Positions 745 through 22,378 of a stretch of DNA of 64,000 bases are shown here, piece by piece. The notes under the pieces were generated by a model that made no database searches, had not been told where the DNA came from, and saw only the letters and a program-made list of their open reading frames with translations. This DNA is from Lachnospiraceae bacterium (GTDB lineage: Bacteria; Bacillota; Clostridia; Lachnospirales; Lachnospiraceae), in contig JAILMB010000050.1 in the NCBI GenBank assembly GCA_024692825.1, positions 686 to 64,685 on the forward strand. The letters run 5' to 3'. The first letter of the stretch is position 1. Every line of letters starts with the position of its first letter. Position numbers and translations under genes: made by a program.

Positions 745-761
745 TAGGGTAGAGGTAAGGA

Positions 762-4322: not shown

Positions 4323-4324
4323 TT

Positions 4325-5263
4325 ATGGCAGAAGAGAAAAAAGGATTCTTCCAGAAACTCATAGCTGGATTAACAAAAACGAGAGATAATTTTGTGAAAA
4401 ACATGGACTATGTCTTTCGTGGATTTACCAACATTGACGAAGAGTTTTATGAAGAACTGGAAGAGATTTTAATATCTGGTGATATTGGTGTACGTACAAC
4501 AGAAGAGATATTAGATGATCTTCGAGGAAAGGTAAAAGAACAAAAAATTAAAGAACCTGCAGATTGTAAAGCTCTTTTAATTGATAGTATTAAAGAGCAG
4601 ATGGATATTGGTGATGCTGCTTATGAATTTGAAAACAAAACCTCTGTGATTCTAGTGGTTGGTGTCAATGGTGTTGGCAAAACTACAACCATCGGAAAAC
4701 TGGCATCGAAGTTTAAAGCCCAAGGGAAAAAGGTGGTGCTTGCAGCAGCAGATACATTCCGGGCAGCGGCAGGAGATCAGTTAAAAGAATGGGCGAACCG
4801 TGCAGGGGTAGAAATCATCGGTGGTCAGGAAGGAAGTGACCCGGCTGCAGTTGTTTATGATGCCCTTCAATCTGCTAAGGCAAAAAAAGCAGATATTCTA
4901 TTAATTGATACAGCAGGAAGATTACACAATAAGAAAAACCTCATGGATGAACTTGGAAAGATCAATCGCATTGTTTCTAAGGAATATCCAGAAGCCTATA
5001 GAGAGACCTTGGTTGTAGTAGATGCAACAACAGGGCAAAACGCTTTGGTACAGGCCAAGGAGTTTTCGGAAGTAACAGATTTATCCGGTATTGTACTTAC
5101 GAAGATGGATGGCTCTGCAAAGGGTGGTATTGCCGTAGCAATTCAATCAGAACTTCATATTCCGGTGAAGTATATTGGAGTTGGTGAAACGGTAGATGAT
5201 TTGGAAAAATTCAATGCGGACCAATTTGTGGAAGCATTGTTTTATACAAAGGAAAATGCTTAA
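4325..5263 (+). CDS. ftsY: Signal recognition particle receptor FtsY
   Basis: 312 aa. SRP-GTPase motifs GVNGVGKTTT, DTAGR and TKMDG. Lies immediately after smc. Confidence 0.95.
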   Translation: MAEEKKGFFQKLIAGLTKTRDNFVKNMDYVFRGFTNIDEEFYEELEEILISGDIGVRTTEEILDDLRGKVKEQKIKEPADCKALLIDSIKEQMDIGDAAYEFENKTSVILVVGVNGVGKTTTIGKLASKFKAQGKKVVLAAADTFRAAAGDQLKEWANRAGVEIIGGQEGSDPAAVVYDALQSAKAKKADILLIDTAGRLHNKKNLMDELGKINRIVSKEYPEAYRETLVVVDATTGQNALVQAKEFSEVTDLSGIVLTKMDGSAKGGIAVAIQSELHIPVKYIGVGETVDDLEKFNADQFVEALFYTKENA

Positions 5264-5294
5264 TCTTTATTAAGCAGGGAAAGAAGGAAAAAAG

Positions 5295-6506
5295 ATGTTA
5301 GAAAAAAAAGATTTTGACGAGGCTTGTAGTGTTGTAGATAAGGTGCGTCTTGAAACAAAGCTTATTTACAGCGAATTTATGAGCGAAAAAACCGGAGCAA
5401 ATGTTTATTTGAAACCGGAAAACATGCAGTTTACAGGTGCTTATAAGTTGAGAGGTGCTTATTATAAAATAAGTACTCTATCAGACGAGGAACGAAGCAG
5501 AGGATTAATTACCGCTTCTGCAGGAAATCATGCTCAGGGAGTTGCCTATGCTGCAAAGAAATTTGGTGTGAAAGCGACCATCGTAATGCCAACTACCACA
5601 CCTTTAATTAAGGTGAATCGTACCAAAAGCTATGGAGCTGAAGTGGTTTTAGTTGGGGATGTTTATGATGAAGCCTGCGAATATGCCCTAAAACTTGCAG
5701 AAGAAAAGGGACTTACCTTTATTCATCCATTTGATGATTTGGCAGTTGCAACAGGTCAGGGTACCATTGCAATGGAGATTATTAAGGAATTACCTTTGGT
5801 TGATTATATTTTGGTACCAATTGGTGGTGGCGGATTAGCCACAGGAGTTTCTACCTTAGCCAAATTAATCAATCCTAAAATTAAAGTAATTGGTGTAGAA
5901 CCTACCGGAGCAGCTTGTATGAAAGCTTCTTTGGAAAAGGGAGAGGTAGTTACCCTTCCTACAGCAAATACAATTGCAGATGGTACTGCAGTTAAGACAC
6001 CGGGAAAGAATATTTTCCCATACTTAAAGAAGAATCTGGATGAGATTATTACAGTAGATGATGATGAATTAATCGGTGCCTTTTTAGATATGGTAGAAAA
6101 CCATAAGATGATTGTAGAAAACTCTGGTTTACTAACCTTTGCTGCAGCTACTAAGCTAAAGGCAAAAGGAAAGAATGTGGTTTGTATTTTATCTGGCGGC
6201 AATATGGATGTCATTACCATGTCATCCGTTGTACAGCAGGGATTAATTTTTAGAGATCGTATTTTTACGGTTTCTGTATTACTTCCTGATAAGCCAGGTC
6301 AGTTAGCAGCTGTTTCCCAGACCATTGCTGATGTACAGGGAAATGTTATCAAACTCGAACATAACCAGTTTGTATCTACCAACCGTAATGTTGAAGTGGA
6401 ACTTCGCATTACCTTAGAAGCATTTGGTAAAGAACATAAAGAACAGATTTTAGATGCCCTTGATAAGGGTGGCTATAAACCAAAGATTGTAAGAACCAGT
6501 TTATAA
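5295..6506 (+). CDS. ilvA: Threonine ammonia-lyase (threonine dehydratase), short form with C-terminal ACT-like domain
   Basis: 403 aa. PLP-lysine motif FTGAYKLRGA and glycine loop GGGGL. The C-terminal ~80 aa resemble a regulatory ACT domain. Confidence 0.85.
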   Translation: MLEKKDFDEACSVVDKVRLETKLIYSEFMSEKTGANVYLKPENMQFTGAYKLRGAYYKISTLSDEERSRGLITASAGNHAQGVAYAAKKFGVKATIVMPTTTPLIKVNRTKSYGAEVVLVGDVYDEACEYALKLAEEKGLTFIHPFDDLAVATGQGTIAMEIIKELPLVDYILVPIGGGGLATGVSTLAKLINPKIKVIGVEPTGAACMKASLEKGEVVTLPTANTIADGTAVKTPGKNIFPYLKKNLDEIITVDDDELIGAFLDMVENHKMIVENSGLLTFAAATKLKAKGKNVVCILSGGNMDVITMSSVVQQGLIFRDRIFTVSVLLPDKPGQLAAVSQTIADVQGNVIKLEHNQFVSTNRNVEVELRITLEAFGKEHKEQILDALDKGGYKPKIVRTSL

Positions 6507-6509
6507 TTT

Positions 6510-6878
6510 ATGAAAAAGAATGATATTATTTTAATCTTAATTATATTGGTCATAAGTGGAGCCGGACTTTTTGTATTACATGCTACAAAAAGTTCCGGTT
6601 CTTTTGTGAAGATAACCGTTGATGGAAATGTTGTGGCAACCTATGATTTGTCGGTGAATCAAACCTATGAGTTAGAAGGGTATGAAGGGGGCTATAACAT
6701 TCTTGTAATCGAAAATGGAGAAGCTTATTTTCGGGAGGCGGACTGTCCTGATTTGGTTTGCGTAAAATCAGGAAAGATTCATAAGGTAGGAGAGACCATT
6801 GTTTGTTTGCCCCATCGGGTGGTAGCAGAAATTGTAAATGAAGGAGAAGATGCCGAAGTTGATACGGTGTCACAATAG
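6510..6878 (+). CDS. NusG domain II-containing (DUF1312-type) membrane-anchored protein
   Basis: 122 aa. N-terminal signal anchor and the characteristic CPDLVCV...CLPHRV motif of this family. Paired with a Gx transporter gene, as is typical. Confidence 0.6.
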   Translation: MKKNDIILILIILVISGAGLFVLHATKSSGSFVKITVDGNVVATYDLSVNQTYELEGYEGGYNILVIENGEAYFREADCPDLVCVKSGKIHKVGETIVCLPHRVVAEIVNEGEDAEVDTVSQ

Positions 6879-10011: not shown

Positions 10012-12099
10012 ATGAAAGTTTTTACTACAGACAAGATACGTAACATTGTTTTATTGGGACATTCCGGAGCGGGGAAGACTTCCCTGGTAGAGTCCATGGC
10101 ATATTTGTCAGGACTTACGAACCGGGCAGGAAAGGTAGAGGACGGAAATACCATCAGTGACTATGATGCTTCTGAAATCAAACGTAAGCTTTCGATTCAG
10201 ACATCCATAATTCCAATTCTTTGGGAAGATTGCAAATTGAATATTTTAGACACTCCGGGCTCCATTGATTTCGTGGGAGAGGTAGAAGAGGCACTTACAG
10301 CTGCAGATGCAGCTATCATTGTAGTTTCCGGTAAAGACGGTGTTGGTGTTGGTACCAGACTTGCTTGGGAGAAATGCGAAAAATATCACCTGCCTCGTAT
10401 GTTTTTCGTTACGGGGATGGATATTGACGAGGTTTCTTATAAGCAGGTCATTTTAGATTTACAGGAACTTTATGGAAAACGAATTGCACCTTTCCATTTA
10501 CCAGTTCGTGAAAATGGAGAGTTTATTGGATATGTAAATGTTATTCAGCAGAGGGCAAAGCGCTGGAAGGAAGATGGAACGGTTGAAAAAATGGACGTTC
10601 CCGATTATTCCATGGAATACTTAGAGACCTATCGTGAAGCTTTAATGGAATCCGTTGCAGAAACATCCGAAGAGTTTATGGATCGCTACTTTAATGGAGA
10701 AGAGTTTTCTGATGATGAAATCCGTCAGGCACTTCGTGTAAATGTTTCCGAGGGAAGTATTGTTCCGGTCCTTATGGGTTCAAACACCCTGAATAGAGGT
10801 ATGTATACTCTTATGGTAGACATGGTGAAATATCTGCCGGGTCCGGATAAGAGAGAATGTGCAGGCATAAATGCTACTTCCAATGACGTATTTGAAGCAA
10901 ATTACGATTTTTCAAAGGCAAAGTCAGCCTATGTATTTAAAACCATTGTGGATCCATTTGTAGGAAAGTACTCCCTGATTAAGGTAAACTCAGGAGTTAT
11001 TAAAACAGACGATGTCTTGTATAACCAACATAAGGATACGGAAGAAAAAATTGGAAAACTCTATGTATTATGTGGTTCTAAAGCTGAAGAAGTAAAAGAA
11101 CTCCACGCAGGAGATATTGGAGCCTTAAGTAAGTTATCCAAAGTAACTACCACAGATTCTCTATCTACAAAGGCCAATCCGATACTTTATATTCGAACTG
11201 GAATTCCTACTCCGTATACCTGCATGAGATATAAACCGCTTAACAAGGGGGACGAGGAAAAGGCTGCTGCAGGATTAGCAAAATTAGCCCAGGAGGATTT
11301 AACCATAAAGGTGAAAAATGATGGAGAGAACCATCAGACTTTACTCTATGGTATTTCGGAGCAACATTTGGATGTAGTTGTTGATAAGTTAAAAGAAAAA
11401 TACAAAGTAGAGATTGAGTTATCACGACCAAAGATTGCATACAAAGAGACCATTCGTGGCAAATGCGATGTGGAGTACAAGTATAAAAAGCAGTCAGGCG
11501 GTCATGGCCAATATGGTCATGTAAAGATGACTTTTGAACCATTAGGTGACACGGAAAAGAACTTTGAATTTTCTCAAACAGTGGTAGGTGGAGCTGTACC
11601 AAAGAACTATTTCCCTGCAGTTGAAAAGGGATTAGAGGAAGGCTGTAAAAAGGGACCTTTGGCAGCTTATCCGGTAGTTGGAATTAAGGCGAATCTATAT
11701 GATGGCAGTTACCATGCAGTAGATTCTTCAGAAATGGCCTTTAAGACAGCAGCGATTCAATGTTTGAAGAAGGGTATTTTAGAAGCAAAGCCCGTGTTAT
11801 TAGAACCTGTTTCTGAATTAAAGGTATTGATACCGGATGATAAAACCGGTGATGTCATGGGAGATTTAAATAAACGTCACGGTAAGGTGACAGGCATGAA
11901 TCCTGTGGAAGGTCAAAAAACAGAAATTGTTTGCGAGATTCCAGACTCTGAATTGTTTGGATATGGAACCACCCTTCGTTCATTAACAGGAGGCGAGGGT
12001 ACATTCTCTTATGAATTCTTGAGCTATCAACAAGCACCTGGGGATATTCAAGAAAAAGAAATTGAACACAGAAAGAGCAAGCTAGAAGAAGACGAATAG
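10012..12099 (+). CDS. Elongation factor G paralogue (EF-G2-type translational GTPase)
   Basis: 695 aa. G1 is GHSGAGKTSL, the EF-G-2 style rather than the canonical AHIDAGKTT. G3 is DTPG, and all five EF-G domains are recognisable. It is not in an rpsL-rpsG-fusA-tuf context. Confidence 0.88.
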   Translation: MKVFTTDKIRNIVLLGHSGAGKTSLVESMAYLSGLTNRAGKVEDGNTISDYDASEIKRKLSIQTSIIPILWEDCKLNILDTPGSIDFVGEVEEALTAADAAIIVVSGKDGVGVGTRLAWEKCEKYHLPRMFFVTGMDIDEVSYKQVILDLQELYGKRIAPFHLPVRENGEFIGYVNVIQQRAKRWKEDGTVEKMDVPDYSMEYLETYREALMESVAETSEEFMDRYFNGEEFSDDEIRQALRVNVSEGSIVPVLMGSNTLNRGMYTLMVDMVKYLPGPDKRECAGINATSNDVFEANYDFSKAKSAYVFKTIVDPFVGKYSLIKVNSGVIKTDDVLYNQHKDTEEKIGKLYVLCGSKAEEVKELHAGDIGALSKLSKVTTTDSLSTKANPILYIRTGIPTPYTCMRYKPLNKGDEEKAAAGLAKLAQEDLTIKVKNDGENHQTLLYGISEQHLDVVVDKLKEKYKVEIELSRPKIAYKETIRGKCDVEYKYKKQSGGHGQYGHVKMTFEPLGDTEKNFEFSQTVVGGAVPKNYFPAVEKGLEEGCKKGPLAAYPVVGIKANLYDGSYHAVDSSEMAFKTAAIQCLKKGILEAKPVLLEPVSELKVLIPDDKTGDVMGDLNKRHGKVTGMNPVEGQKTEIVCEIPDSELFGYGTTLRSLTGGEGTFSYEFLSYQQAPGDIQEKEIEHRKSKLEEDE

Positions 12100-12126
12100 T
12101 AGTAAGAGAGTATCGAACTAGAAAGT

Positions 12127-13695
12127 GTGAGAATTATGAGAAAATACGTAGGCATAACCATAGGACCAATCACAAATGCACTGCAATATGCGAAAGATCC
12201 GCAATCACTATGGTTTGCCTGCGCTATTTTTTCGGAAATTTCCAGAGAGTTATGTGAATTAATTACTGCGCCAAACTGTTCCTTTGAGGAGGTTGTAATC
12301 TACACTCCTTACTATTTTCACGGTATGAAGATTGACGATGGTGTTGCAAAGACCCATGATCGAATCATCTTTTCTGCGGAACATGTGGAGAATCATGTAA
12401 TTGATAAAATGATTGAACTTGTAAAAGAAGATGTTTGTGATTTATTCCCTGTGGAATATCAATCCCAAGAGTACCGACAATTCTTAAAAGACTATTTCCA
12501 AATCAAATATATTTGCTTAGAAGAAAATAATGAGTTAAATCACAATTGCATGATGACCATTTATCCTTATTTACATGATATGGAGTCCATGCAAAAGGGA
12601 AATACTGAGACCTTTTTGAATCCATTTTATGATTTGTTTGGCCTTGGTGAGGATACTCGAAGTTTTCGTATAATGACATCACCCATTGCACATCTGGTAA
12701 AAAAAGGGTCTGCTCAGTTTTTTAATCTTCGGGGAGAGTTTAAAACTGTTGCAGAAATCGCTAATCCAAAACTACCGGAGGGCAGGAAAAAAGCTCCCTA
12801 TTATTGCCTTGTTCGATGCAATGGGGACAATATTGATATGTTGCTCCGTGGATTTTCCGATAATAAAAAGATTATTTCTTTTTCAGTAGCCTGTTTACAA
12901 CACTCCATTACTACTTCGGAACTGATTCGAATGTTTGGAGGATTAACGGTATATGCCGGTGGAGATGAGTGCTTCTTCTTTGCACCTTTAGTAGGGATGG
13001 ATGGTTCTACGATTTTTGAATTGTGCCAAAGAATTCAGCAAAAGTTTTACACCTTTATGAAAAACCATTTGCCCTGGTCTAATATTCCAACCCTGTCTTT
13101 TGGAGTCTCCATCCAGAGAAATACTCATGATGCCTATGATGTGTTTGTGGAAACAGGTAAATTATTGGATGTGGCAAAGCAAATCAGCGATAAGAACAAC
13201 ACAGCAGTTCGCATTACCAATAAAAGCAGAAGCGAATGTATTGTTGTAAACAATCAGGACATTGATGCCTTTTTGGATATCTTCAAAGCAAACCTTGATA
13301 TTATGGATGGAATGATTACCACAGAACGAAAGAAGAATCAGCTTTCCGAGACCATTGCATTAATTGACGAGTATGAAAACATTATTATGTCCATTAGTGA
13401 AATGGCAAAAAATGGAAATCTATCTCCAGAGGAATACTTTAAGTCTGTTTCTTCCATTTTCCAGGGAGGAACATTGGAACGTTCTCCTGAGGAGTTAAAG
13501 AATCTATTGATTTTGTACTACAAACGTCTGGTTCGAAAGCCTAGAGGTATTTGGGTACCAAAAATCGATGAGGTCACTGGAAAGTATTTAAAAGCCAACC
13601 ATTACAATGCAGAGGATGGTAGTATTGGAGTCTTTGAAGAAATCCTAAATATGAAGGAAGATATTCTTGAATTAAAGGAGGAGTACACTCCCTAG
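12127..13695 (+). CDS. Cas10/Cmr2-like palm-domain (GGDEF-like) nucleotide polymerase/cyclase lacking an HD domain; orphan, with no cas neighbours
   Basis: 522 aa. The start may be GTG 12127 or ATG 12136.
- The N-terminus ITIGPITNALQYAKDPQSLWFACAIFS resembles the Cmr2_N signature (GPVQxFIxxAR..DLWxGSxLLS).
- CNGDNID (nt 12823-12837) is a palm metal-binding D-x-x-D.
- About 45 aa later comes VYAGGDECFFFAP (GGDE at nt 12958-12969).
- Then SFGVSIQ...AYDV...LLDVAK follows, as in Cas10 palm 2.
- The C-terminus is a helical tail.
Family assignment was made by eye only. Confidence 0.6.
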   Translation: MRIMRKYVGITIGPITNALQYAKDPQSLWFACAIFSEISRELCELITAPNCSFEEVVIYTPYYFHGMKIDDGVAKTHDRIIFSAEHVENHVIDKMIELVKEDVCDLFPVEYQSQEYRQFLKDYFQIKYICLEENNELNHNCMMTIYPYLHDMESMQKGNTETFLNPFYDLFGLGEDTRSFRIMTSPIAHLVKKGSAQFFNLRGEFKTVAEIANPKLPEGRKKAPYYCLVRCNGDNIDMLLRGFSDNKKIISFSVACLQHSITTSELIRMFGGLTVYAGGDECFFFAPLVGMDGSTIFELCQRIQQKFYTFMKNHLPWSNIPTLSFGVSIQRNTHDAYDVFVETGKLLDVAKQISDKNNTAVRITNKSRSECIVVNNQDIDAFLDIFKANLDIMDGMITTERKKNQLSETIALIDEYENIIMSISEMAKNGNLSPEEYFKSVSSIFQGGTLERSPEELKNLLILYYKRLVRKPRGIWVPKIDEVTGKYLKANHYNAEDGSIGVFEEILNMKEDILELKEEYTP

Positions 13696-13701
13696 TTAAC
13701 C

Positions 13702-13729
13702 TTGACAAATAAGCCCCTTATGATAAAAT
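13702..13729 (+). promoter_or_regulatory. Sigma-A type promoter for leuS
   Basis: TTGACA (13702-13707), 16-nt spacer, extended -10 TGaTAAAAT (13721-13729). Lies about 45 nt upstream of the leuS ATG. Confidence 0.55.
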
Positions 13730-13774
13730 TTTTAAGATTTAAGATTTTTATCATTAGGAGGATTGGAATAAAAG

Positions 13775-16198
13775 ATGGCTCAGGCATATAATCACCATAC
13801 GGTGGAAAAGAAATGGCAGAAATACTGGGAGGAGCACGAAACATTTAAGACAGACGTTTGGGATTTTTCAAAACCGAAATACTACGCTCTAGATATGTTT
13901 CCATACCCTTCAGGAGTAGGATTGCATGCTGGTCATCCCGAAGGATATACAGCAACTGATATTATGTCTCGTATGAAGAGAATGCAGGGATATAACGTAT
14001 TACACCCAATGGGATATGATTCCTTTGGTCTTCCTGCAGAGCAGTATGCTGTTACAACAGGAAATCATCCTAATGGATTTACAGAAAAGAATATAGAAAC
14101 ATTTTCAAAACAGTTGAAAGAACTTGGATTTGACTACGATTGGTCCAAGCTTCTTGCAACTTCAGATCCCTCATTTTACAAGTGGACACAGTGGATTTTT
14201 AAGAAGCTCTACGAAAAAGGTTATGCAAAGCATATTGATATGCCTGTAAACTGGTGCGAAGAGCTTGGTACTGTATTGTCAAATGATGAGGTCATTGATG
14301 GAAAGTCAGAGCGTGGTGGTTACCCGGTTGTTAAAAAGATGATGAAGCAGTGGGTAATTGATCAGCAGTCTTTTGCGGAAGAATTGCTTTCAGGATTAGA
14401 TGAGATTGACTGGCCGGAATCCACAAAAGAAATCCAACGTAACTGGATTGGTAAATCAACCGGTGTTGAAGTTGATTTTTCGATTGAAGGTGGTGGAGAG
14501 TTCTCTATTTTCACAACCTGTATTGAAACCATTTATGGTATTACCTTTATGGTATTGGCTCCCGATGGAGAAATTACAAAGAGCTTATTGGATCGAGTAG
14601 AAAATCGTGAAGAAGCAGAAGCTTATATTGCTGAAACTGCTAAGAAGAACGATTTGGATCGTACTGATTTAAATAAAACAAAGTCAGGTTGCCCATTAAA
14701 GGGAATTTATGCTATCAATCCTGTAAATGGACGTAAAGTACCTGTATTTATTGGTGACTTCGTATTAGCAAGCTACGGAACCGGTGCTGTTATGGCCGTT
14801 CCTACACATGATCAAAGAGACTTTGAGTATGCACAGGCCCATGGGCTTGAATATATTCAGGTAATCGATGGAGAAGGAGTAGATGTTTCTTCTCATGCGT
14901 TTGAAAAACAGGATTACCTTGGAAAGGGCTGTAAGCTTATTAATTCTGAAGAGTTTAATGGTCTCACAGTAGAAGAAGCAAAGCCGGCTATCACAAAGAA
15001 ACTTGTTGATATGGGTGTTGCAAGAGAAAAGGTAAACTATCACTTCCGTGAATGGATTTTTGCAAGACAAAGATATTGGGGCGAGCCAGTACCTTGCGTT
15101 TACAAAGAGGATGGAAGTATTGAATTTGTTCCTGATGAGGAATTACCGGTAATCCTTCCTGAGTTAGAGGACTATAAGGGTAAAAATGGTCAGGCTCCAT
15201 TAGAGAATGCCACTGAGTGGAAACAGTACGATAAGAATGGCTTAAAGGGAGTTCGTGAAACCTCTACTATGCCTGGTTCAGCCGGATCTTCTTGGTATTA
15301 CCTAAGATATATTGATCCAAACAATAACGATGAATTTGCAAATCAAGAGTTGTTAAAGCACTGGATGCCTGTAGATTTATATGTAGGTGGACCTGAGCAT
15401 GCAGTTGGACATTTGATTTATTCAAGAATCTGGAATCGTTTCTTATATAACGAGGGATTGTCTCCAGTGAAGGAACCATTCAAAAAGTTAGTACATCAGG
15501 GAATGATTCTTGGTGAGAATGGTATTAAGATGGGAAAACGTTTCCCTGAATTTGTTGTAAATCCTAGCGATATCGTAAGAGATTACGGTGCAGATACCCT
15601 TCGTTTATATGAAATGTTTATGGGACCTTTAGAGGTTTCTAAACCTTGGAATTCAAACAATGTAACCGGAGCAAAGAAGTTCATTAACCGTGTTTATACC
15701 TTCTTCTCTGAATCGGAGAATCTGACCGATGAAAATGATGGTACATTGGAAAAGATTTATCATCAGACCGTTCGTAAGGTTACAAATGACTTTGAAGAGC
15801 TAGGCTACAATACAGCTATTTCGCAGATGATGATTTTTGTAAATGCTGTTTATAAAGCAGGAAGCTGCTACAGAGAATACGCTGAAAACTTCATTAAGAT
15901 GTTCTCTTGCATTTGCCCTCATATTGGTGAAGAGATTTGGGAGATTATGGGACATAATGAGACTATTGCTTACGAATCTTGGCCAACTTATGATGAGTCA
16001 AAATGTGTGGAAGATACCATTGAGATTGCTGTTCAGATTAATGGTAAGGTGAAAGCCACAATTGCAATTGGAAAAGATGATCCAAAAGATGATGTCATTG
16101 CAAAGGGCAAAGAAGCTATTTCCGATAAGCTTGAGGGATTAAACATTGTAAAAGAGATTTACGTTCCAGGAAGAATCGTAAATATTGTAGCAAAATAA
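13775..16198 (+). CDS. leuS: Leucine--tRNA ligase
   Basis: 807 aa. HIGH-type motif PYPSGVGLHAGHPEGY, KMSKS-equivalent KMGKR, and CP1 editing domain. Confidence 0.97.
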   Translation: MAQAYNHHTVEKKWQKYWEEHETFKTDVWDFSKPKYYALDMFPYPSGVGLHAGHPEGYTATDIMSRMKRMQGYNVLHPMGYDSFGLPAEQYAVTTGNHPNGFTEKNIETFSKQLKELGFDYDWSKLLATSDPSFYKWTQWIFKKLYEKGYAKHIDMPVNWCEELGTVLSNDEVIDGKSERGGYPVVKKMMKQWVIDQQSFAEELLSGLDEIDWPESTKEIQRNWIGKSTGVEVDFSIEGGGEFSIFTTCIETIYGITFMVLAPDGEITKSLLDRVENREEAEAYIAETAKKNDLDRTDLNKTKSGCPLKGIYAINPVNGRKVPVFIGDFVLASYGTGAVMAVPTHDQRDFEYAQAHGLEYIQVIDGEGVDVSSHAFEKQDYLGKGCKLINSEEFNGLTVEEAKPAITKKLVDMGVAREKVNYHFREWIFARQRYWGEPVPCVYKEDGSIEFVPDEELPVILPELEDYKGKNGQAPLENATEWKQYDKNGLKGVRETSTMPGSAGSSWYYLRYIDPNNNDEFANQELLKHWMPVDLYVGGPEHAVGHLIYSRIWNRFLYNEGLSPVKEPFKKLVHQGMILGENGIKMGKRFPEFVVNPSDIVRDYGADTLRLYEMFMGPLEVSKPWNSNNVTGAKKFINRVYTFFSESENLTDENDGTLEKIYHQTVRKVTNDFEELGYNTAISQMMIFVNAVYKAGSCYREYAENFIKMFSCICPHIGEEIWEIMGHNETIAYESWPTYDESKCVEDTIEIAVQINGKVKATIAIGKDDPKDDVIAKGKEAISDKLEGLNIVKEIYVPGRIVNIVAK

Positions 16199-16210
16199 TA
16201 TTACATATTG

Positions 16211-16242
16211 AGGTGGCTGTTTTTACAACCACCTTAAATTTT
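16211..16242 (+). terminator. Candidate intrinsic terminator after leuS
   Basis: Hairpin AGGTGGCTGT-TTTT-ACAACCACCT (9 of 10 bp paired), followed by TAAATTTT. The U-tract is interrupted. Confidence 0.4.
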
Positions 16243-16256
16243 GAAAGGAAAAGATT

Positions 16257-17465
16257 ATGTCAAAAATTGAAATGAAAACTCCATTGGTTGAGATGGACGG
16301 AGATGAAATGACCAGAATTCTCTGGCAGATGATTAAAGATGAGTTAATTACTCCTTTTGTAGATTTAAAAAGCGAGTACTATGATCTTGGCTTAAAGCAT
16401 AGAAATGAAACCAATGATCAGGTAACAATTGATTCTGCAGAAGCTACCAAAAAATATGGTGTTGCTGTAAAGTGCGCAACCATTACTCCAAACGCTGCTA
16501 GAGTAGAAGAGTATGATTTAAAAGAAATGTGGAAGTCTCCAAATGGAACCATCCGAGCAATTTTAGACGGAACCGTATTTCGTGCTCCAATTATCGTTAA
16601 AGGAATTGAGCCTTGCGTAAAGAATTGGAAGAAACCAATTACCATTGCCCGTCATGCTTATGGTGATGTATATAAAGCATCAGAAATGAAGATTCCGGGA
16701 CCTGGAAAGGTAGAGCTTGTTTATACAAGAGAAGATGGAACAGAAGAAAGAGAATTGATTCATAATTTCACTAAAGCTGGTGTTATCCAGGGACAGCACA
16801 ACCTCTGTGATTCTATTGAAAGTTTTGCAAGAAGCTGTTTTAACTTTGCTTTAGATACAAAGCAGGATTTATGGTTTGCAACAAAGGATACCATCTCAAA
16901 AAAATATGATCATACCTTTAAAGATATTTTCCAGGAAATCTTTGATAAAGAGTACAAAGAAAAATTTGAAGCAGCAAACATTGAATATTTCTATACATTA
17001 ATTGATGATGCTGTAGCTCGTGTTATGAAGTCTGAAGGGGGATTTATCTGGGCATGTAAAAACTATGACGGAGATGTAATGAGTGATATGCTTTCTTCAG
17101 CCTTTGGTTCACTTGCCATGATGACTTCTGTACTAGTATCTCCTCAGGGATACTTCGAATATGAAGCAGCACATGGAACTGTACAGCGTCACTATTACAA
17201 ACACTTAAAGGGAGAAGAAACATCTACAAACTCTGTTGCAACAATTTTTGCATGGAGTGGAGCTTTAAGAAAACGTGGCGAGTTAGATGAACTTCCTGAG
17301 CTTATGAAATTTGCCGACAACTTGGAAAAAGCATGTATCGAAACCATTGAATCCGGAAAAATGACTGGAGATTTGGCTCGTATTACTTCTTTAGAAAATC
17401 CAAGTGTCTTAAACAGTAAAGATTTTATTATCGCGATTCGTGAAACTTTAGAATCTTATGATTAA
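16257..17465 (+). CDS. icd: NADP-dependent isocitrate dehydrogenase, eukaryotic-like (IDH1-type) homodimeric form
   Basis: 402 aa. Strong resemblance to IDH1-type enzymes ([28 protein letters not shown]). Confidence 0.93.
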
Positions 17466-17476
17466 GGAGTAAGATT

Positions 17477-19402
17477 ATGATTTTAACCTGTCAAAATTTA
17501 AAGGTTGCATTCGGAGATGATGTGTTATTTCAAAATGTATCCTTTCAAATTCGTGAGCAGGAGCATGTGGCCATCGTTGGTCCAAACGGTTGTGGTAAAT
17601 CAACACTTTTGAAGGTGATTACATCGGAGCTCTCCCCGTCGGAGGGCTCCGTTACGTTTGGAAAAGATGTAACTTATGGATATTTAGCTCAGTATCAGGA
17701 TGTGGATATTGAGGAAGATATTTATCATCATGTGCTTCACGCCAATGAAGAAATCCTTCGCTTAGAACAGGAACTTTTGGATATGGAAGGTTCCTTGAAG
17801 GAAGTGGAAGGTAGTGAGCTAGAGACACTTTTAAATCGCTACCACGAAAAACAGCATAGTTTTGAATTAATGGGTGGCTCTTCTTATCGGAGTGAAGTAA
17901 CTGGTGTATTAAAGGGCCTTGGTTTTATAGAAGAGGATTTCACAAAGACCATGGACCAACTGTCCGGTGGACAAAAAACACGGGTGAATTTAGCCCGATT
18001 GTTGATGCAAAAGCCAGATTTACTTTTGTTGGATGAGCCCATTAACCACCTGGATTTAGCATCCATTGAATGGTTGGAAAACTTTTTGCTAAATTACAAA
18101 GGAGCAGTTTTAATTGTTGCCCACGATCGGTATTTTTTGGATCACATTGTGGAAACCGTTATTGATTTGTCTTTTCAAACAGCAAAAAGTTATAAAGGGA
18201 ATTATTCTGCCTTTTCAGAACAAAAACGACTTGTGATGCTAACAAGACAACGGGAATTTGAAAAGCAACAAAAAGAGATTGCTCATCAGGAGGAAGTTAT
18301 TACAAAACTTCGTCAGTTCAATCGTGAAAAATCCATTAAACGTGCGGACTCTCGAGTAAAGCAGCTGGAAAAAATGGATAAGGTGGAAAAATTAACAGAA
18401 AAAGATACGGCGATGAAAATTAATTTAGAGCCTGATTCTGTTAGTGGAAACGACGTTTTAACAGTGGAACATTTACAAAAAGCCTTTGATCAACAGGCTT
18501 TATTTTCAGATGTCTCTTTTGAAATCCACAGAGGAGAACATGTAGCATTACTTGGAGACAATGGAACTGGAAAAACCACAATTTTAAAAATTTTAAATGA
18601 TAAAATCTCCGCAGATGGTGGTAAGGTGAAAATCGGTACAGGGGTTCATATTGCTTACTACGATCAGGAACAACAACAGTTAAATGATGAAAACACGTTG
18701 TTTGATGAATTAAAGGATTCTTATCCGAATTTGACAGATACAAAAGTGCGTAATGTACTAGCTGCCTTTTTATTTACAGGAGATGATGCCTTTAAAAAGA
18801 TTTCGGCTTTATCCGGTGGAGAAAGAGGTCGTGTGTCCCTGGCAAAACTCATGCTTTCCGGAGCAAATTTTTTGATTTTAGATGAGCCTACAAACCATTT
18901 GGATATGGAGAGTAAGGATATTTTAGAATCCGCCTTGAATGGATTTTCGGGAACGGTATTTTATGTATCTCACGATCGATATTTTATCAATCAAACAGCT
19001 CATCGCATTTTAGAACTAAGAGATGAGACCCTTTATTCCTACCTTGGAAACTATGATTACTATTTATCAAAACGTGATGAAGCGGTATATCAGGGACAAA
19101 AAGAAGAAAATGTGGAGGAAACTGTTGAAGAAGTTTCTCTTGGAAAACTCTCCTGGGAAGAACAAAAAAAGGCTGAGGCTGCAAAAAGAAAAATTCAAAA
19201 TCAAATCTCGAAAATAGAAGAAGAGATTGAAGCAAAAGAAACTCGTATTTCAGAGATTGATGAAATGTTTATGGATGAAGAAACTGCAAAGAATTCAGCG
19301 AAACTAAACGAACTTTCTGCAGAGCAAAAAAAATTGCAGGAATCATTAGCAGAGTTGTATGAAAAGTGGGAAGAGTTAAATGATGAAATCCCTGTTGTGT
19401 GA
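17477..19402 (+). CDS. ABC-F family ATPase (translation-associated; two ABC domains, no TMD)
   Basis: 641 aa. Two Walker A motifs (GPNGCGKST, GDNGTGKTT), two signatures (LSGGQK, LSGGER), an inter-domain linker and a charged C-terminal coiled coil. Confidence 0.9.
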   Translation: MILTCQNLKVAFGDDVLFQNVSFQIREQEHVAIVGPNGCGKSTLLKVITSELSPSEGSVTFGKDVTYGYLAQYQDVDIEEDIYHHVLHANEEILRLEQELLDMEGSLKEVEGSELETLLNRYHEKQHSFELMGGSSYRSEVTGVLKGLGFIEEDFTKTMDQLSGGQKTRVNLARLLMQKPDLLLLDEPINHLDLASIEWLENFLLNYKGAVLIVAHDRYFLDHIVETVIDLSFQTAKSYKGNYSAFSEQKRLVMLTRQREFEKQQKEIAHQEEVITKLRQFNREKSIKRADSRVKQLEKMDKVEKLTEKDTAMKINLEPDSVSGNDVLTVEHLQKAFDQQALFSDVSFEIHRGEHVALLGDNGTGKTTILKILNDKISADGGKVKIGTGVHIAYYDQEQQQLNDENTLFDELKDSYPNLTDTKVRNVLAAFLFTGDDAFKKISALSGGERGRVSLAKLMLSGANFLILDEPTNHLDMESKDILESALNGFSGTVFYVSHDRYFINQTAHRILELRDETLYSYLGNYDYYLSKRDEAVYQGQKEENVEETVEEVSLGKLSWEEQKKAEAAKRKIQNQISKIEEEIEAKETRISEIDEMFMDEETAKNSAKLNELSAEQKKLQESLAELYEKWEELNDEIPVV

Positions 19403-19403
19403 G

Positions 19404-19421
19404 TTGTTAAATGTTTGACAA
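19404..19421 (+). promoter_or_regulatory. Rex operator (ROP box) upstream of rex
   Basis: TTGTTAAATGTTTGACAA compared with the clostridial Rex consensus TTGTTAA-N4-TTAACAA gives 13 of 14 specified positions. It overlaps the -35 element of the rex promoter. Confidence 0.6.
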
Positions 19422-19443
19422 TAATAGTAAAACATCTTATACT
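19415..19443 (+). promoter_or_regulatory. Sigma-A type promoter for rex
   Basis: TTGACA (19415-19420), 17-nt spacer, TATACT (19438-19443). Lies about 32 nt upstream of the rex ATG. Confidence 0.6.
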
Positions 19444-19475
19444 TTTGTAATAGAAATAGCACGAGAGGAACGGAA

Positions 19476-20099
19476 ATGGAACGAGAAATATCGCAAGCCG
19501 TAATTCGCAGAATGCCTAGATACTATCGCTATTTAGGTGAATTATTGGATTCAAATGTGGAAAGAATTTCATCAAACGAGCTTTCAAAGTTAATGCATGT
19601 AACTGCGTCTCAAATTCGTCAGGATTTGAATAATTTTGGTGGATTTGGACAACAGGGCTATGGCTATAATGTAAAGTTTTTGCATGACGAGATCGGTAAG
19701 ATTTTAGGACTGAATCAGATGCACAATGTTATTCTTATTGGTGCAGGTAACTTAGGTCAGGCCATTGCAAACTATGTTAATTTCGAGAGATTGTCCTTTC
19801 GAATGATTGGATTATTTGATGTAAATGAAGCAAAAGTAGGTAAGACTGTAAGTGGTGTAGAAGTACATCATATGAGTGAATTGCAGGATTTTTTAATGAA
19901 TAATCGTGTAGATATTGCAGCTCTTACACTACCAAAGGATAATGCGGAAAAAGTTGCAGAAGAATTAGTAGAACTGGGAATTACCGCAATTTGGAATTTT
20001 GCCCATGTGGATTTGGAAGTTCCAGAAAATGTGGTGGTTCAGAACGTACATCTATCAGACAGTTTAATGCAACTTTCCTATAATATTACTCAGATTTAA
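19476..20099 (+). CDS. rex: Redox-sensing transcriptional repressor Rex
   Basis: 207 aa. N-terminal winged helix (RRMPRYYRYL, SSNELS...TASQIRQDL) and Rossmann motif GAGNLGQA. Confidence 0.93.
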   Translation: MEREISQAVIRRMPRYYRYLGELLDSNVERISSNELSKLMHVTASQIRQDLNNFGGFGQQGYGYNVKFLHDEIGKILGLNQMHNVILIGAGNLGQAIANYVNFERLSFRMIGLFDVNEAKVGKTVSGVEVHHMSELQDFLMNNRVDIAALTLPKDNAEKVAEELVELGITAIWNFAHVDLEVPENVVVQNVHLSDSLMQLSYNITQI

Positions 20100-20109
20100 G
20101 GAGTTTATT

Positions 20110-20823
20110 ATGGATGAGAAGCAATTTGTAGATGCCCTAAAAGCAAGGCATATTCCAACCTTAGTATTAGATCAAAAATGGCATCGGTTATTTGCCATTA
20201 GCGGCAAACCCGATAATATAAAGACCTTAGAAGTAGAGGAAAAGGAAATCCTTGTACGTCAGGGACATTTGAATCAGGAACTTCGTGAATTAAAGAAGAT
20301 TAAAAATGATTTAATGAAGGGTATTGTTGACAATATGGAAGGGGCTGATGCAAATAAAGCTACAGCTGAAAGTGAAAAGAAACTTTCCGACAACAAACGC
20401 CTTTTAAATGAAACAAATGATAAAATCGATGCAGACGAAGATGAGTTGATGGAGATTCCAAAGCTTCTAAAAGAGAAGAATGACGAACTTATGCTAGCCA
20501 CCATGAACTTTTGCTATGCCAGACTTCGTACCAACGCATCGGAAGCAAAAGAAATCACAGAGTGGATTACAAATGTTCGTATTGAATTAAAGAAGAACAT
20601 TATTAAAAAACAAAATCGTGAAATCAACAATAAGGAAATCTATTCTTACTTACATGATTTGTTTGGTAAAGATGTAATGCAGTTATTCGATGTTCATTAT
20701 GATGAGCAGGAACTTCCTATTGGTTCATCGCAGCCTGAGGTTTCTTCTACAGTTAAGAAGAAGGAAGAAAAAGAAGCAAACAAAGATCGTACTACGAACT
20801 TTGATGTAAAAAAAGAGGAATAA
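20110..20823 (+). CDS. Hypothetical coiled-coil protein with K/E-rich tail
   Basis: 237 aa ORF 10 nt after rex, with good coding appearance and predicted coiled coil. I do not recognise a family. Confidence 0.5.
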   Translation: MDEKQFVDALKARHIPTLVLDQKWHRLFAISGKPDNIKTLEVEEKEILVRQGHLNQELRELKKIKNDLMKGIVDNMEGADANKATAESEKKLSDNKRLLNETNDKIDADEDELMEIPKLLKEKNDELMLATMNFCYARLRTNASEAKEITEWITNVRIELKKNIIKKQNREINNKEIYSYLHDLFGKDVMQLFDVHYDEQELPIGSSQPEVSSTVKKKEEKEANKDRTTNFDVKKEE

Positions 20824-20837
20824 AATGGTATGATAGA

Positions 20838-20865
20838 AGTGTCTTGCAATGCAAGGCACTTTTTT
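20838..20865 (+). terminator. Intrinsic terminator after the rex-linked ORF
   Basis: 10-bp stem AGTGTCTTGC/GCAAGGCACT (one G-U pair), 3-nt loop, then TTTTT. Confidence 0.55.
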
Positions 20866-20878
20866 AAGGAGGAAGAGG

Positions 20879-22378
20879 ATGCAACACATTTTAAATGGAA
20901 AAGAAATGCACAGTTGCGACGAAACACTGATCAGGGAGTTTAAGGTGCCTTCTTTGGTGTTGATGGAAAAAGCAGCTCTTCGTGTGTATGACTATGTTTT
21001 ATCTCATTATACAAAAGAATCTATAATAGGAATTGTCTGTGGCCCTGGTAATAACGGAGCAGATGGATTGGCGGTAGGTCGATTACTGTTTGACGATGGC
21101 TATAATGTGAAGCTTTATTTATGCTGTGAAAAGGATAAATTTTCTTCGGATGAAAAGCGCCAATATGAAATGGCCCTCTCTTATGAGGTTCCGTTTTGCA
21201 GTGATATTTTGGAATTAAAAACAGCAGATGTGATTTTAGATGCCATTTTTGGTACCGGATTGAGCCGGGAAATTGACGGTCATTATAAGGAGGTAATCAC
21301 TACAATCAATGAGTTTTCAGGAGATAAGATTGCCATTGATATTCCAAGTGGTGTTTCTGCAGATGATGGAAAAATCCTAGGTTGTGCCATTAAATGCAAT
21401 GCTACAGTTACCTTTGCCTATTATAAACTTGGACAGTTACTATATCCCGGAAAAAGCTATTGTGGATCTGTAGAAAAGTATGATATTGGAATTTCAAAAC
21501 GAAGTTTCTCAGATAAAAAAATGGGTGTTTTGGCTCTTGATAAAGAAGATATTTCAAAACTGTACCCAAAGAGAGAGGGAGATTCTCATAAGGGGAGTTT
21601 TGGAAAAGTTCTGGTGGTAGCCGGTTCAAAAAACATGGCTGGAGCTGCGCTGTTTTGTGCAAAATCCTGCTATTTAATGGGAGCTGGATTAGTTAAGATT
21701 TATACAGAGGAATCCAATCGTCAAATCCTTCAAACTTCTTTGCCGGAGGCTTTGTTATGTACTTATGAGAACCGAATAAATGAAGATGAGTTAGAATCGG
21801 CTCTTGCCTGGGCAGATGTGGTGATACTTGGACCTGGCTTGTCGGAAGAAACACTTCAGTCTAAAATTGCAAAATTTGTATTGGATCATGTAGGCGGTCC
21901 CATGGTAGTGGATGCCGATGGACTAAACTATATTTCTAAACATAAAAACCTTTTGAAACGACCTCATATGGAAATGGTATTGACTCCTCATTTAGGAGAA
22001 ATGAGTCGTTTGATTGATGAGCCGGTTTCTTATATCAAGGAAAACAAACTATCTGTTTCCGAAGAGTTTTCTATTTACAACAATGTGGTACTTGCTCTAA
22101 AGGATGCAGTAACTATTACAGCAAGGCCTTATTTACAGAGCTTTATAAACATGTCAGGAAATAATGGAATGGCAACGGCAGGAAGTGGAGATGTATTGTC
22201 AGGAATGATTGGTGGACTCATGGCTCTTGGCATGAAGGGAGAAGATGCGGCACCTCTTGGAGTTTATCTCCATGGCTTATGCGGAGATGCTGCTGCAATA
22301 AAAAAAGGAAAAGCCTCCCTTATGGCTTCCGATATTTTAGAAGAGATTCCTTTTCTACTGAAGGAATTTGTATTATAA
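20879..22378 (+). CDS. nnr: Bifunctional NAD(P)H-hydrate repair enzyme (epimerase / ADP-dependent dehydratase)
   Basis: YjeF_N segment (CGPGNNGADG) plus carbohydrate-kinase-like C-terminus (GSGDVLSG). I prefer the start at ATG 20879, which has a GGAGGAAGAGG RBS. The tracked ORF start at 20849 lies inside the terminator hairpin. Confidence 0.88.
   Translation: MQHILNGKEMHSCDETLIREFKVPSLVLMEKAALRVYDYVLSHYTKESIIGIVCGPGNNGADGLAVGRLLFDDGYNVKLYLCCEKDKFSSDEKRQYEMALSYEVPFCSDILELKTADVILDAIFGTGLSREIDGHYKEVITTINEFSGDKIAIDIPSGVSADDGKILGCAIKCNATVTFAYYKLGQLLYPGKSYCGSVEKYDIGISKRSFSDKKMGVLALDKEDISKLYPKREGDSHKGSFGKVLVVAGSKNMAGAALFCAKSCYLMGAGLVKIYTEESNRQILQTSLPEALLCTYENRINEDELESALAWADVVILGPGLSEETLQSKIAKFVLDHVGGPMVVDADGLNYISKHKNLLKRPHMEMVLTPHLGEMSRLIDEPVSYIKENKLSVSEEFSIYNNVVLALKDAVTITARPYLQSFINMSGNNGMATAGSGDVLSGMIGGLMALGMKGEDAAPLGVYLHGLCGDAAAIKKGKASLMASDILEEIPFLLKEFVL

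Follow-up and report, generated by a model that had tools for sequence, protein, structure and literature searches.

[quoted passage not shown] What, then, is a Cas10-like gene doing between an elongation factor G (EF-G) paralog and leuS in a Lachnospiraceae genome? An earlier note on this DNA, a 64-kb stretch referred to here as the window, had described such a gene as an HD-less Cas10/Cmr2 homolog with intact catalytic motifs and proposed that it had been co-opted for a role outside of CRISPR interference. To our knowledge, the miniature mCpol is the only characterized stand-alone relative of Cas10. Surveys of Cas10 deliberately exclude "solo Cas10" matches (PMC10600005).

The open frame (12127–13695, + strand, 522 codons, GTG-initiated) is present exactly as the earlier note had claimed, and the N-terminal IGPI...LWF...FS segment, GDNID (12823–12837), and GGDE (12958–12969) are found at the coordinates it gave. 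The likelier start is ATG 12136, which agrees with the identical NCBI MAG protein P0001 and with the MKKYVG start of the orthologs. Residues of the protein are numbered in the 522-codon frame (from GTG 12127). The gene and its domains are listed below, with identities for the clade of genes that lack CRISPR partners (the orphans).

12136..13695, + strand: orphan HD-less Cas10/Cmr2-like gene, 519 aa from ATG 12136, open frame from GTG 12127
12136..12606, + strand: Palm1 (acceptor-site) domain, aa 4–160, with the N-terminal TIGPI strand; mean pairwise identity of the orphans 78%
12799..13206, + strand: Palm2 (donor/catalytic) domain, aa 225–360, PF22335; mean pairwise identity of the orphans 83%
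13207..13692, + strand: C-terminal helical D4 (Cas11-like) domain, aa 361–522; mean identity of the orphans 65%, the least constrained part

Profile and structure searches of the kind proposed in the earlier note both give similarity to Cas10/Cmr2 that is well past chance. The protein matches the Pfam family Cas10-Cmr2_palm2 (PF22335) over aa 225–359 (66.2 bits against a cutoff of 27, E = 4e-18) and the PADLOC Cas10b model across aa 6–367 (E = 8e-25), and a profile of its family finds Bacteroides fragilis Cas10 (9lq5_B) as the best match in the PDB (E = 7.5e-61). Pfam Cmr2_N by itself is sub-threshold (13 bits, E = 0.1), but the N-terminal Palm1 strand is still supported by the PADLOC match and by the family profile, whose N-terminal ∼160 positions align with residues 1–161 of B. 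fragilis Cas10 (E = 1.9e-17). The NCBIfam equivalog cutoffs for type III-B Cmr2 and type III-A Csm1 are missed (34 against 79.4 for TIGR02577; 31.9 against 170 for TIGR02578), and Pfam gives no match at E ≤ 10 in this protein to PF18182 (mCpol) or PF00990 (GGDEF domain). An AF2 model (pLDDT 85.8, pTM 0.88) has the Palm1-linker-Palm2-helical D4 architecture of solved Cas10 structures, with the two-palm fold wholly kept. Foldseek places the model closest to 9lq5_B, a type III-B Cas10 (E = 1e-18, TM 0.72), and all 50 of the 50 matches listed are Cas10, Cmr2, or Csm1 chains. Based on these results, the frame encodes a genuine full-length Cas10/Cmr2 that, as stated earlier, has no HD domain. The description of it as much shorter than canonical Cas10 is misleading, as ∼500 aa is normal for its HD-less type III-B subfamily. 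In the D4 domain, the orphans have a clade-specific insertion, and the KHSGQ motif of their relatives is absent.

To look for CRISPR partners, custom HMMs of Cmr1/3/4/5/6, Cas6, CorA, and the CARF nuclease were built from 60–72 loci. Of the 82 loci that contain a Cas10 relative, a set that includes three from the orphan clade, 60–72 have these partners. None of the HMMs found a match in six frames of the 64-kb window (best E ≥ 0.04), and there was no match to Cmr1/3/4/5/6, Cas6, or CorA, and no CRISPR array, in six other syntenic orphan loci (L001, L003, L007, and L095–97). The CorA HMM matches in 60 of the 82 loci and in neither the window nor the other orphan loci. TRF detected no tandem or CRISPR repeats in the window, and Rfam yielded a single distant tRNA and no T-box or other RNA element near the gene. 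The large ORFs of the window are housekeeping genes by Pfam, except for three that have no match, and no CorA, CARF, SAVED, TIR, or 2TM effector or SAM-AMP–degrading enzyme was found nearby. The earlier observation that nothing else in the window is CRISPR-related thus holds by annotation, repeat search, and six-frame HMM search. Among the 82 fetched loci, the orphan clade alone is without all of the partners. An exhaustive search of 1.84e9 representatives returned one orphan cluster and a fragment, and a metagenome scan added three further orphan loci, all with identical synteny. From these results, we conclude that the gene is truly an orphan within the window and the six syntenic loci.

The gene lies among housekeeping and translation genes, as originally described, and its synteny and motifs are common to all seven orphan loci, a point that the earlier note had suggested checking across related genomes. 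Its immediate surroundings are as follows.

10012..12099, + strand: EF-G paralog, NCBIfam NF009381, ending 36 nt before the start of the Cas10-like gene
13702..13729, + strand: strong promoter of the sigma-70-like type, TTGACA-16-TAAAAT plus a TG extension, within the 79 nt that separate the gene from leuS
13775..16198, + strand: leuS, which bounds the variable slot on its downstream side

No terminator-like site was found between the EF-G paralog and the Cas10-like gene, and the paralog is probably its transcriptional host; the promoter ahead of leuS is conserved in L001, L003, and the relative L086. In sister genomes, the slot between the EF-G paralog and leuS is empty (L086, placed outside of the orphan clade by the identity of its EF-G) or holds an Flg_new protein (L088–92) or a GGDEF-EAL protein (L093). 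Because the same slot is empty or occupied by unrelated genes in these genomes, the association with EF-G and leuS looks positional. A search of the empty slot for gene remnants by tblastn gave nothing better than E ∼1. Three closer connections were considered and set aside. Functional coupling to the EF-G paralog is weakened by the occurrence of this paralog (∼75% identity) throughout the Lachnospiraceae without a Cas10-like gene. Co-acquisition with leuS was dropped, since the leuS of the window is of a common Butyrivibrio-like type (87–89% identity) that also stands beside a different slot gene in L093. Homology to the GGDEF-EAL gene that fills the slot in L093 was rejected, as the two genes have no BLAST similarity. 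The family contains two leuS types; the leuS that occupies this position in L086 and L090 is only ∼50% identical to that of the orphan clade.

The orphans fall into a single narrow clade from uncultured gut Lachnospiraceae, and their gene is under purifying selection. All 12 protein clusters and all seven loci of this clade retain an uninterrupted reading frame, and dN/dS for the gene is 0.07–0.14, similar to that of aroA, although these are rough values with dS saturated. Conservation is highest in the two palm domains, and 53–62% of palm and linker positions do not vary among the orphans. The partner-less housekeeping synteny is found at seven loci that span 67–83% identity, and the GC content of the gene (37.2%) is close to the window mean (37.5%).

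The nearest relatives (∼30% identity) belong to CorA-associated type III-B operons of the SAM-AMP signaling type; that of a relative with 32% identity encodes CARF-PDDEXK, Cas6, Cmr1, Cas10, Cmr3, Cmr4, Cmr5, Cmr6, and CorA. In B. fragilis Cas10, D70 and E151 are the SAM-site residues (PMC10600005). The predicted counterparts of these residues, and a lysine pair, are encoded at the following positions.

12358..12360, + strand: codon of D78, equivalent to B. fragilis Cas10 D70, the acidic residue of the SAM-acceptor site; invariant in the orphans, Asp in 175 of 182 relatives
12583..12585, + strand: codon of E153, equivalent to B. fragilis Cas10 E151, the second acidic residue of the SAM site; invariant in the orphans, Glu in 177 of 182 relatives
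13177..13194, + strand: K351...K356 pair, conserved in the orphans and their relatives

K351 and K356 are predicted to bind the triphosphate, as their spacing is that of K420/K425 in type III-D2 Cas10, and the other putative donor-ATP residues (F252, S253, Y276, and GGD280) are kept with them. The lineage of origin makes SAM-AMP and not cyclic oligoadenylate (cOA). Given this ancestry and the retention of D78 and E153, chemistry or binding linked to SAM is a likelier function than a cOA cyclase; the proposal that the gene was co-opted outside of CRISPR is, as such, the reading we favor.

The metal-binding center differs from that of the relatives in two motifs.

12820..12837, + strand: beta1 motif of Palm2, N232-G-D-N-I-D237; D-G-D-x-M-G in the relatives
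12958..12969, + strand: GGDE in the turn of the beta2/beta3 hairpin, aa 278–281; GGDD in 182 of 182 relatives

Mg in the type III-D2 SAM-AMP synthase is coordinated by D286, the carbonyl of G287, D347, and E348; the beta1 Asp, D286, bridges both Mg ions, and D286A abolishes activity (PMC13294483). We took the beta1 register from this work (PMC13294483) and from structural work on Enterococcus italicus; the B. fragilis motif D279-G280-D281-S-M-G284 agrees with the III-D2 register, and beta1 spans aa 225–233 in the AF2 model. By this register, the bridging ligand is the residue that precedes the Gly, so GDNID would not be the pair of metal-binding Asp residues it had been taken for, and N232 would occupy the position of the lost Asp, an assignment made from the motif register and predicted secondary structure rather than by residue-level superposition. 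Position 232 is Asp in all 182 relatives and in 124 of 124 distant representatives but Asn in all 16 orphan entries; position 237 is Gly in 166 of the 182 relatives and position 281 is Asp in every one of them, and these are Asp and Glu, respectively, in 16 of 16 orphan entries. None of the 124 distant Cas10 representatives has these changes, whereas in the orphans N232, D237, and E281 are unchanged throughout, which answers the question of motif conservation raised in the earlier note. D234 is invariant in orphans and relatives alike. The claim of intact catalytic motifs therefore stands for GGDE, which is a natural and essential active motif in the III-D2 SAM-AMP synthase (PMC13294483), but not for beta1, where an Asp found in 306 of 306 relatives is Asn in every orphan. 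The complete two-metal set of a beta1 Asp and GGD(D/E) is accordingly broken at Asn232.

D237 appears to replace the Gly at +5 of the relatives' beta1 motif, and the two-metal center seems to have been rebuilt in a clade-specific manner by D232N, G237D, and D281E. Net charge is conserved across the three changes, and all are fixed in the orphans rather than drifting, which looks like rebuilding rather than decay. The amide oxygen of Asn can still bind Mg2+, and the newly gained D237 and longer E281 could compensate for the loss of Asp at position 232. With a site that looks rebuilt, an invariant D234, and possible compensation by D237 and E281, real catalytic activity may have been kept. Our best reading is that the protein would bind ATP and SAM at a remodeled metal center, catalysis being only a possibility.

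On balance, we think it somewhat probable that this is a domesticated (exapted) Cas10 with a role outside of CRISPR. The HD-less large subunit of a CorA-associated SAM-AMP type III-B system would have entered the variable slot between the EF-G paralog and leuS in an ancestor shared by this narrow group of uncultured gut Lachnospiraceae. All of its Cmr, Cas6, CorA, and CRISPR partners would have been lost, and purifying selection would have preserved the gene by itself, with transcription probably driven by the EF-G promoter. The role of an RNA-guided, complex-activated synthase would have been abandoned, leaving a palm protein that would bind ATP and SAM on its own. With its altered metal site, this protein may sense a ligand while turning over little or nothing, or it may be an adenylyl-transferase, slow or constitutive, in which the geometry of the metals has changed; we lean slightly toward the sensor. 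Host physiology, and not CRISPR interference, would be the target of its output. Outside of the complex, Cas10 subunits produce little if any cOA (PMC13398931).

A decaying, functionless remnant of a type III-B locus that has broken down would explain both the missing partners and the substituted catalytic Asp, but the selection data effectively refute it: the frame is intact across the clade, dN/dS is comparable to that of aroA, the palm and linker regions are rich in invariant positions, the neighborhood contains no cas debris, and the GC content is fully ameliorated. It is also improbable, if a little less so, that the gene encodes a displaced subunit still dedicated to CRISPR, with the remaining genes of its type III-B effector located elsewhere in the genome. 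Our view of this genome is limited to 64 kb, and the full Cas10 architecture is kept, D4 included; however, the protein has only ∼30–35% identity to any partnered Cas10, partners adjoin cas10 in most of the loci surveyed, the partner-less synteny is repeated in all seven orphan loci, the metal-site changes and the loss of KHSGQ are never seen in partnered Cas10s, and D4 is the least constrained domain.

A more serious, although still doubtful, alternative is an active stand-alone second-messenger synthase, constitutive or conditional, that makes SAM-AMP from ATP and SAM, or pppApA, cOA, or another adenylylated product, at a remodeled but functional two-metal site and signals to an unlinked receptor. 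The use of GGDE by the III-D2 synthase, the conservation of all ATP and SAM contacts, and the charge-conserving, invariant nature of the three metal-site changes are consistent with such an enzyme, as is the GGDEF-EAL signaling protein that the sister lineage L093 has in the same slot. In addition, mCpol is a Cas10-like palm enzyme that is constitutively active alone, and isolated Thermococcus onnurineus Cas10 adenylylates alcohols in a GGDD-dependent manner (PMC13398931). Against it, the residue replaced by Asn here is the one that bridges both Mg ions in III-D2, where D286A is inactive, and 0 of 306 relatives tolerate the change; isolated full-length Cas10s are normally near-inactive without their complex, and none of the effectors or SAM-AMP–degrading enzymes sought lies nearby.

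Beyond the favored account of exaptation, we offer as a speculation that this is the first Cas10 recruited to ordinary cell physiology. Descended from a SAM-AMP synthase but standing alone, expressed along with an EF-G paralog, and using a rebuilt metal center, it could supply a constitutive SAM- or ATP-derived signal or report SAM/ATP status to translation, the stress response, or a similar process. In such a role, the signature protein of type III systems would be put to a use that is neither defensive nor RNA-guided. What the data present is a full-length Cas10 long kept alone under selection in a housekeeping operon, with an active-site signature found in 0 of 306 relatives. If it is active, SAM-AMP–like or new adenylylated signals would extend beyond immunity; as a ligand sensor, it would instead be a clear natural case of a CRISPR enzyme turned pseudoenzyme. 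Either way, it provides a compact, partner-free protein in which to study the Cas10 palm pocket alone, and the N232/D237/E281 triad is a ready-made mutation set with which to probe the two-metal center.

Among known systems, B. fragilis Cmr2, the SAM-AMP synthase of a CorA-associated type III-B system (PDB 9LQ5–9LQ8; Chi et al. 2023), is likewise HD-less and ∼500–600 aa long, and it shares with the orphan the Palm1-linker-Palm2-D4 fold (TM 0.72), the N-terminal GPI strand, the D70/E151-type SAM pair, the contacts to ATP adenine and triphosphate, and the GGD motif. Unlike Cas10 of CorA-associated III-B systems, the orphan has no Cmr1/3/4/5/6, Cas6, CRISPR, CorA, or SAM-AMP–degrading genes nearby, has NGDxID in place of DGDxMG and GGDE in place of GGDD, has lost KHSGQ and gained the D4 insertion, is only ∼17–30% identical, and lies in a chromosomal housekeeping context rather than a defense or mobile one. 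Type III-D2 Cas10, a SAM-AMP/SAM-AMP2 synthase (PDB 9WXH; PMC13294483), has the GGDE catalytic motif of the orphan and uses SAM as the acceptor, as the orphan's predicted SAM site suggests for it also. The III-D2 enzyme, however, keeps the beta1 Asp D286 where the orphan has Asn232, holds SAM by E8/Q186 instead of a D70/E151-type pair, and works within a Cas7x3/Cas7-5 complex, whereas the orphan is partner-less.

The mCpol protein of Panoptes (PDB 9NWN; PMC12657230) resembles the orphan as a Cas10-related palm protein found outside of a CRISPR effector complex and with no guide RNA. It is a small single-palm homodimer (PF18182) that synthesizes 2'3'-c-di-AMP and, in defense islands, invariably accompanies a 2TM-beta toxin; the orphan, in contrast, has two palms and D4 in 519 aa, no PF18182 match, no adjacent effector, and housekeeping synteny. 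Palm domains, degenerate GGDEF domains among them, can serve as receptors for nucleotides; one example is the GGDEF of GGDEF-EAL proteins, which binds GTP. These receptors keep nucleotide binding after the loss of a metal-ligand carboxylate and take on a regulatory role, which is a likeness to the orphan in logic only. In Cas10 itself, Palm1 is typically catalytically inactive (PMC4762429). Unlike the degenerate GGDEF receptors, the orphan has no GGDEF Pfam match, and the GGD(E) half of its site is still intact.

The Cas10-like gene and the regulatory site that follows it occupy these positions in the window.

12127-13695, + strand: Cas10-like open reading frame, the open frame beginning at a GTG

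within 13696-13774: leuS promoter-like site with a near-consensus extended -10 (TTGACA-16-TG-TAAAAT), conserved in L001, L003, and L086 (loci fetched from other genomes)

The reading frame and all motifs quoted from it in the earlier note were found where that note had placed them. The ATG at 12136 is the likelier start; it gives 519 aa, as annotated for P0001 (an identical protein from a Lachnospiraceae MAG), and the N termini of orthologues agree with it. Residue numbers used here count from the GTG. The Pfam Cas10-Cmr2_palm2 model matched the product with 66 bits (gathering score, 27), and the PADLOC Cas10b model matched residues 6-367 (E=8e-25). Such profile scores lie well outside what a chance likeness to Cas10 would give. 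Scores against the NCBIfam equivalogs for Cmr2 and Csm1 fell far short of the cutoffs, which indicates a divergent family member and not a standard Cmr2. An AlphaFold2 model made from a 22-sequence alignment was confident (pLDDT 85.8, pTM 0.88) and predicts a full Cas10 fold; all 50 of the Foldseek matches listed from the PDB were Cas10, Cmr2, or Csm1 chains, and the top match among them was B. fragilis Cas10 (9lq5_B, TM 0.72). The proposal that this protein is a Cas10/Cmr2 homologue was thus borne out, and its homology assigns it to that superfamily. It has no HD domain, as had been noted; the description of it as much shorter than canonical Cas10 is misleading, since ∼500 aa is the usual length in the HD-less subfamily.

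Homologues fell into two tiers separated by a wide gap, with 12 clusters at 67-100% identity (the orphan clade) and all others at ∼24-38% (the relatives). The operon around one 32% relative, at locus L004, consists of genes for CARF-PDDEXK, Cas6, Cmr1, Cas10, Cmr3, Cmr4, Cmr5, Cmr6, and CorA. Among 82 fetched loci with a Cas10 relative, including 3 orphan-clade loci, the flanks contained Cmr3 in 72, Cmr4 in 71, Cmr6 in 69, Cmr1 in 66, and Cmr5 and CorA in 60 each. Judged by gene content, the arrangement in the relatives is the CorA-associated type III-B architecture. The B. fragilis representative of these systems makes SAM-AMP, not cyclic oligoadenylate, and its SAM acceptor site is defined by a pair of acidic residues, D70 and E151 (PMC10600005). 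Their counterparts in the aligned window protein are D78 and E153, which do not vary among the orphans and scarcely vary among the relatives. Sequence comparison therefore traces the window protein to the CorA-associated type III-B lineage.

The L004 operon, which contains both the CARF-PDDEXK nuclease and CorA, has genes for TraG/T4SS coupling proteins and FtsH-like AAA proteases on its flanks (736-6442 and 17987-21527); these neighbours suggest that it rides on a conjugative element. Directly past its CorA gene is a 176-aa ORF (16081-16611) without a PADLOC model match that recurs in 21 type III-B loci and could encode a SAM-AMP-degrading or accessory protein. The type III-B relatives conserve a KHSGQ motif immediately past Palm2; the orphans all have N-K-x-R-x there (window 13219-13233, aa 365-369), a change that could reflect loss of a contact with the complex.

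When HMMs for Cmr1, Cmr3, Cmr4, Cmr5, Cmr6, Cas6, CorA, and the CARF-PDDEXK nuclease, made from the relatives' operons, were run against six frames of the window, they returned noise only (best E ≥ 0.04); the Cas10 HMM matched the ORF at 4e-121. No tandem or CRISPR-like repeats were found in the window, the sole Rfam match was one tRNA, and, except for three without a match, the large ORFs are core housekeeping genes by Pfam (rnc, smc, ftsY, ilvA, aroA, tyrA, an EF-G paralogue, leuS, icd, an ABC-F protein, rex, alr, ftsK, fhs, mutS, mutL, miaA, mreBCD, PBP, rodA, nusA, and others). The statement that nothing else in the window is CRISPR-related stands. Seven independent orphan-clade loci were identified (the window, L001/L002, L003, L007, L095, L096, and L097), none with a Cmr or CorA partner, and wherever the contig extends their order is aroA(-), tyrA(-), EF-G paralogue, cas10-like, leuS, icd, ABC-F, rex. 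Within the visible DNA of the window and the other orphan-clade loci, all of the partners have been lost. Records that name a host point to animal guts: L007 is from red deer, and the L001 sample bears the label WOLF17. An exhaustive HMMER search over 1.84 billion representative proteins returned only one cluster and one fragment of the orphan clade, and a pattern scan of 185,579 representative genomes found at least one further species with the gene.

All substantial genes from the EF-G paralogue to the window end are on the + strand (10012-62561), ∼52 kb of uninterrupted co-orientation. ORFs of 395 aa (35693-36880, between phoH and ybeY) and 237 aa (20110-20823, just past rex) have no Pfam or NCBIfam match; by position and size, a Pfam-less ORF of 234-236 aa also comes after rex in L001, L086, and L093. 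In L003, an Abi_2 (abortive infection) gene is inserted along with an ORF of 137 aa between a heptaprenyl-synthase-like gene and aroA (3452-5205); this small defence-related insertion lies within a few kb of the Cas10-like gene and is absent in the window.

In the type III-D2 SAM-AMP synthase, two Mg2+ are held by D286, the G287 carbonyl, D347, and E348, and the phosphates by main-chain amides (K289, F290, and G291); its motif is naturally GGDE, and D286A, D347A, and E348A are each inactive (PMC13294483). In E. italicus Csm1 the corresponding residues are D530 and, from the catalytic GGDD, D584 (PMC11734703). The register D(+0)-G(+1)-x-x-hydrophobic(+4)-G(+5), in which the first Asp is the bridging ligand, fits the D-G-D-x-M-G of the relatives (D279-G280-D281-S-M-G284 in B. 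fragilis). The AlphaFold beta1 strand spans residues 225-233, with residues 232-233 at its C-terminal end, the place of the ligand. N232 was placed at the bridging-ligand position from this motif register and the predicted secondary structure rather than a superposition of structures, so GDNID, previously read as the palm Asp pair, is not the canonical pair.

Position 232 is Asp in 182 of 182 relatives and Asn in 16 of 16 orphan entries; position 281 is Asp in 182 of 182 relatives and Glu in all orphans; and position 237, Gly in 166 of the 182, is Asp in all orphans. Neither Asn at 232 nor GGDE occurs in any of 124 more distant full-length representatives. The rest of the pocket is retained (D234, F252, S253, Y276, G278, G279, D280, K351, K356, D78, and E153), so that the predicted ATP and SAM sites are conserved. 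The claim of intact catalytic motifs therefore holds for GGDE, which the III-D2 precedent makes compatible with catalysis, and fails at beta1, where N232, on which the earlier note did not remark, replaces the carboxylate that bridges the two metals; the motifs are fixed among the orphans, with Asn232, Glu281, and Asp237 differing from the relatives. Together, these alignments indicate a clade-specific remodelling of the predicted metal centre. Because the three changes are fixed and net charge is kept, the site looks more like a rebuilt than a decayed one.

Pairwise dN/dS for the Cas10-like gene was 0.07-0.14, similar to the neighbouring aroA (0.09-0.13) and above leuS or icd (0.015-0.04), all rough values because dS is saturated. 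Every copy is full length, and mean pairwise identity among orphans is 78% in Palm1, 83% in Palm2, and 65% in the C-terminal D4 (Cas11-like) domain. The gene is under purifying selection, and these data effectively exclude a decaying relic.

Between the EF-G paralogue and leuS, Lachnospiraceae lineages differ in gene content. In L086 (EF-G 83% identical; 6008-6196), the gap holds a terminator-like hairpin and the leuS promoter with no gene between; in Roseburia-like genomes (L088-92; L088 3565-4863, L090 9115-10419), a 432-434-aa Flg_new-repeat protein; and in L093 (leuS 89% identical; 4485-6800), a membrane GGDEF-EAL protein with degenerate motifs (DINFFK, GGDQF) whose gene start abuts the EF-G stop. 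The backbone (tyrA, EF-G, slot, leuS, icd, ABC-F, rex) is older than the Cas10-like gene, and this differing content makes the gap (window 12100-13774) a variable slot, so mere position is the simplest account of the Cas10-like gene's proximity to translation genes. Related lineages thus have two different palm-type nucleotide-signalling proteins, Cas10-like and GGDEF-EAL, in one slot. The Cas10-like gene starts 36 nt past the EF-G stop with no terminator-like site between them in the window, and the strong leuS promoter-like site comes after it; transcription from the EF-G promoter is therefore probable. At 37.2%, the gene's G+C content is the same as the mean of the window. No Rfam match to a T-box leader was found ahead of leuS (13696-13774). 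Two leuS types, ∼50% identical, occupy one syntenic position in different Lachnospiraceae (window 13775-16198; L086 6197-8617; L090 10657-13074) between EF-G and icd genes that are 74-88% identical; the window leuS is of the Butyrivibrio-like type (87-89% identity), and the pattern suggests xenologous replacement in one set of lineages.

We propose that the window protein would no longer be an RNA-activated subunit and would act by itself, as a palm protein that binds ATP and SAM, its binding predicted from conserved residues. We lean slightly toward a protein that senses ligands and turns over weakly or not at all, on the following grounds. Degenerate palm domains in other proteins act as nucleotide receptors. 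In III-D2, the closest enzyme that has been studied, activity disappears when the bridging Asp is lost, isolated Cas10 subunits are in general near-inactive when the complex is absent (PMC13398931), and Cas10 Palm1 is typically predicted to be catalytically inactive (PMC4762429). A stand-alone, possibly constitutive synthase with a new metal geometry is a less probable but quite plausible rival reading, favoured by the fixed, charge-conserving substitutions, the GGDE of the III-D2 enzyme, alcohol adenylylation that depends on GGDD in isolated T. onnurineus Cas10, and the precedent of mCpol as a constitutive enzyme (PMC12657230). A displaced subunit of a CRISPR system is very improbable given the partner-less synteny conserved across orphan loci and active-site changes unique to the orphans.

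Surveys recognise "solo Cas10" proteins and then filter them out (PMC10600005), and our full-text literature searches found no account of an orphan Cas10 that is chromosomal, conserved, and remodelled at its active site. Compared with known systems, the window protein does not class by its visible gene context as a type III-B effector subunit, as no partners are present in the window or the orphan loci, nor is it a complete SAM-AMP synthase, since the beta1 Asp is missing and there is no CorA, and it belongs to neither the mCpol nor the GGDEF cyclase family.
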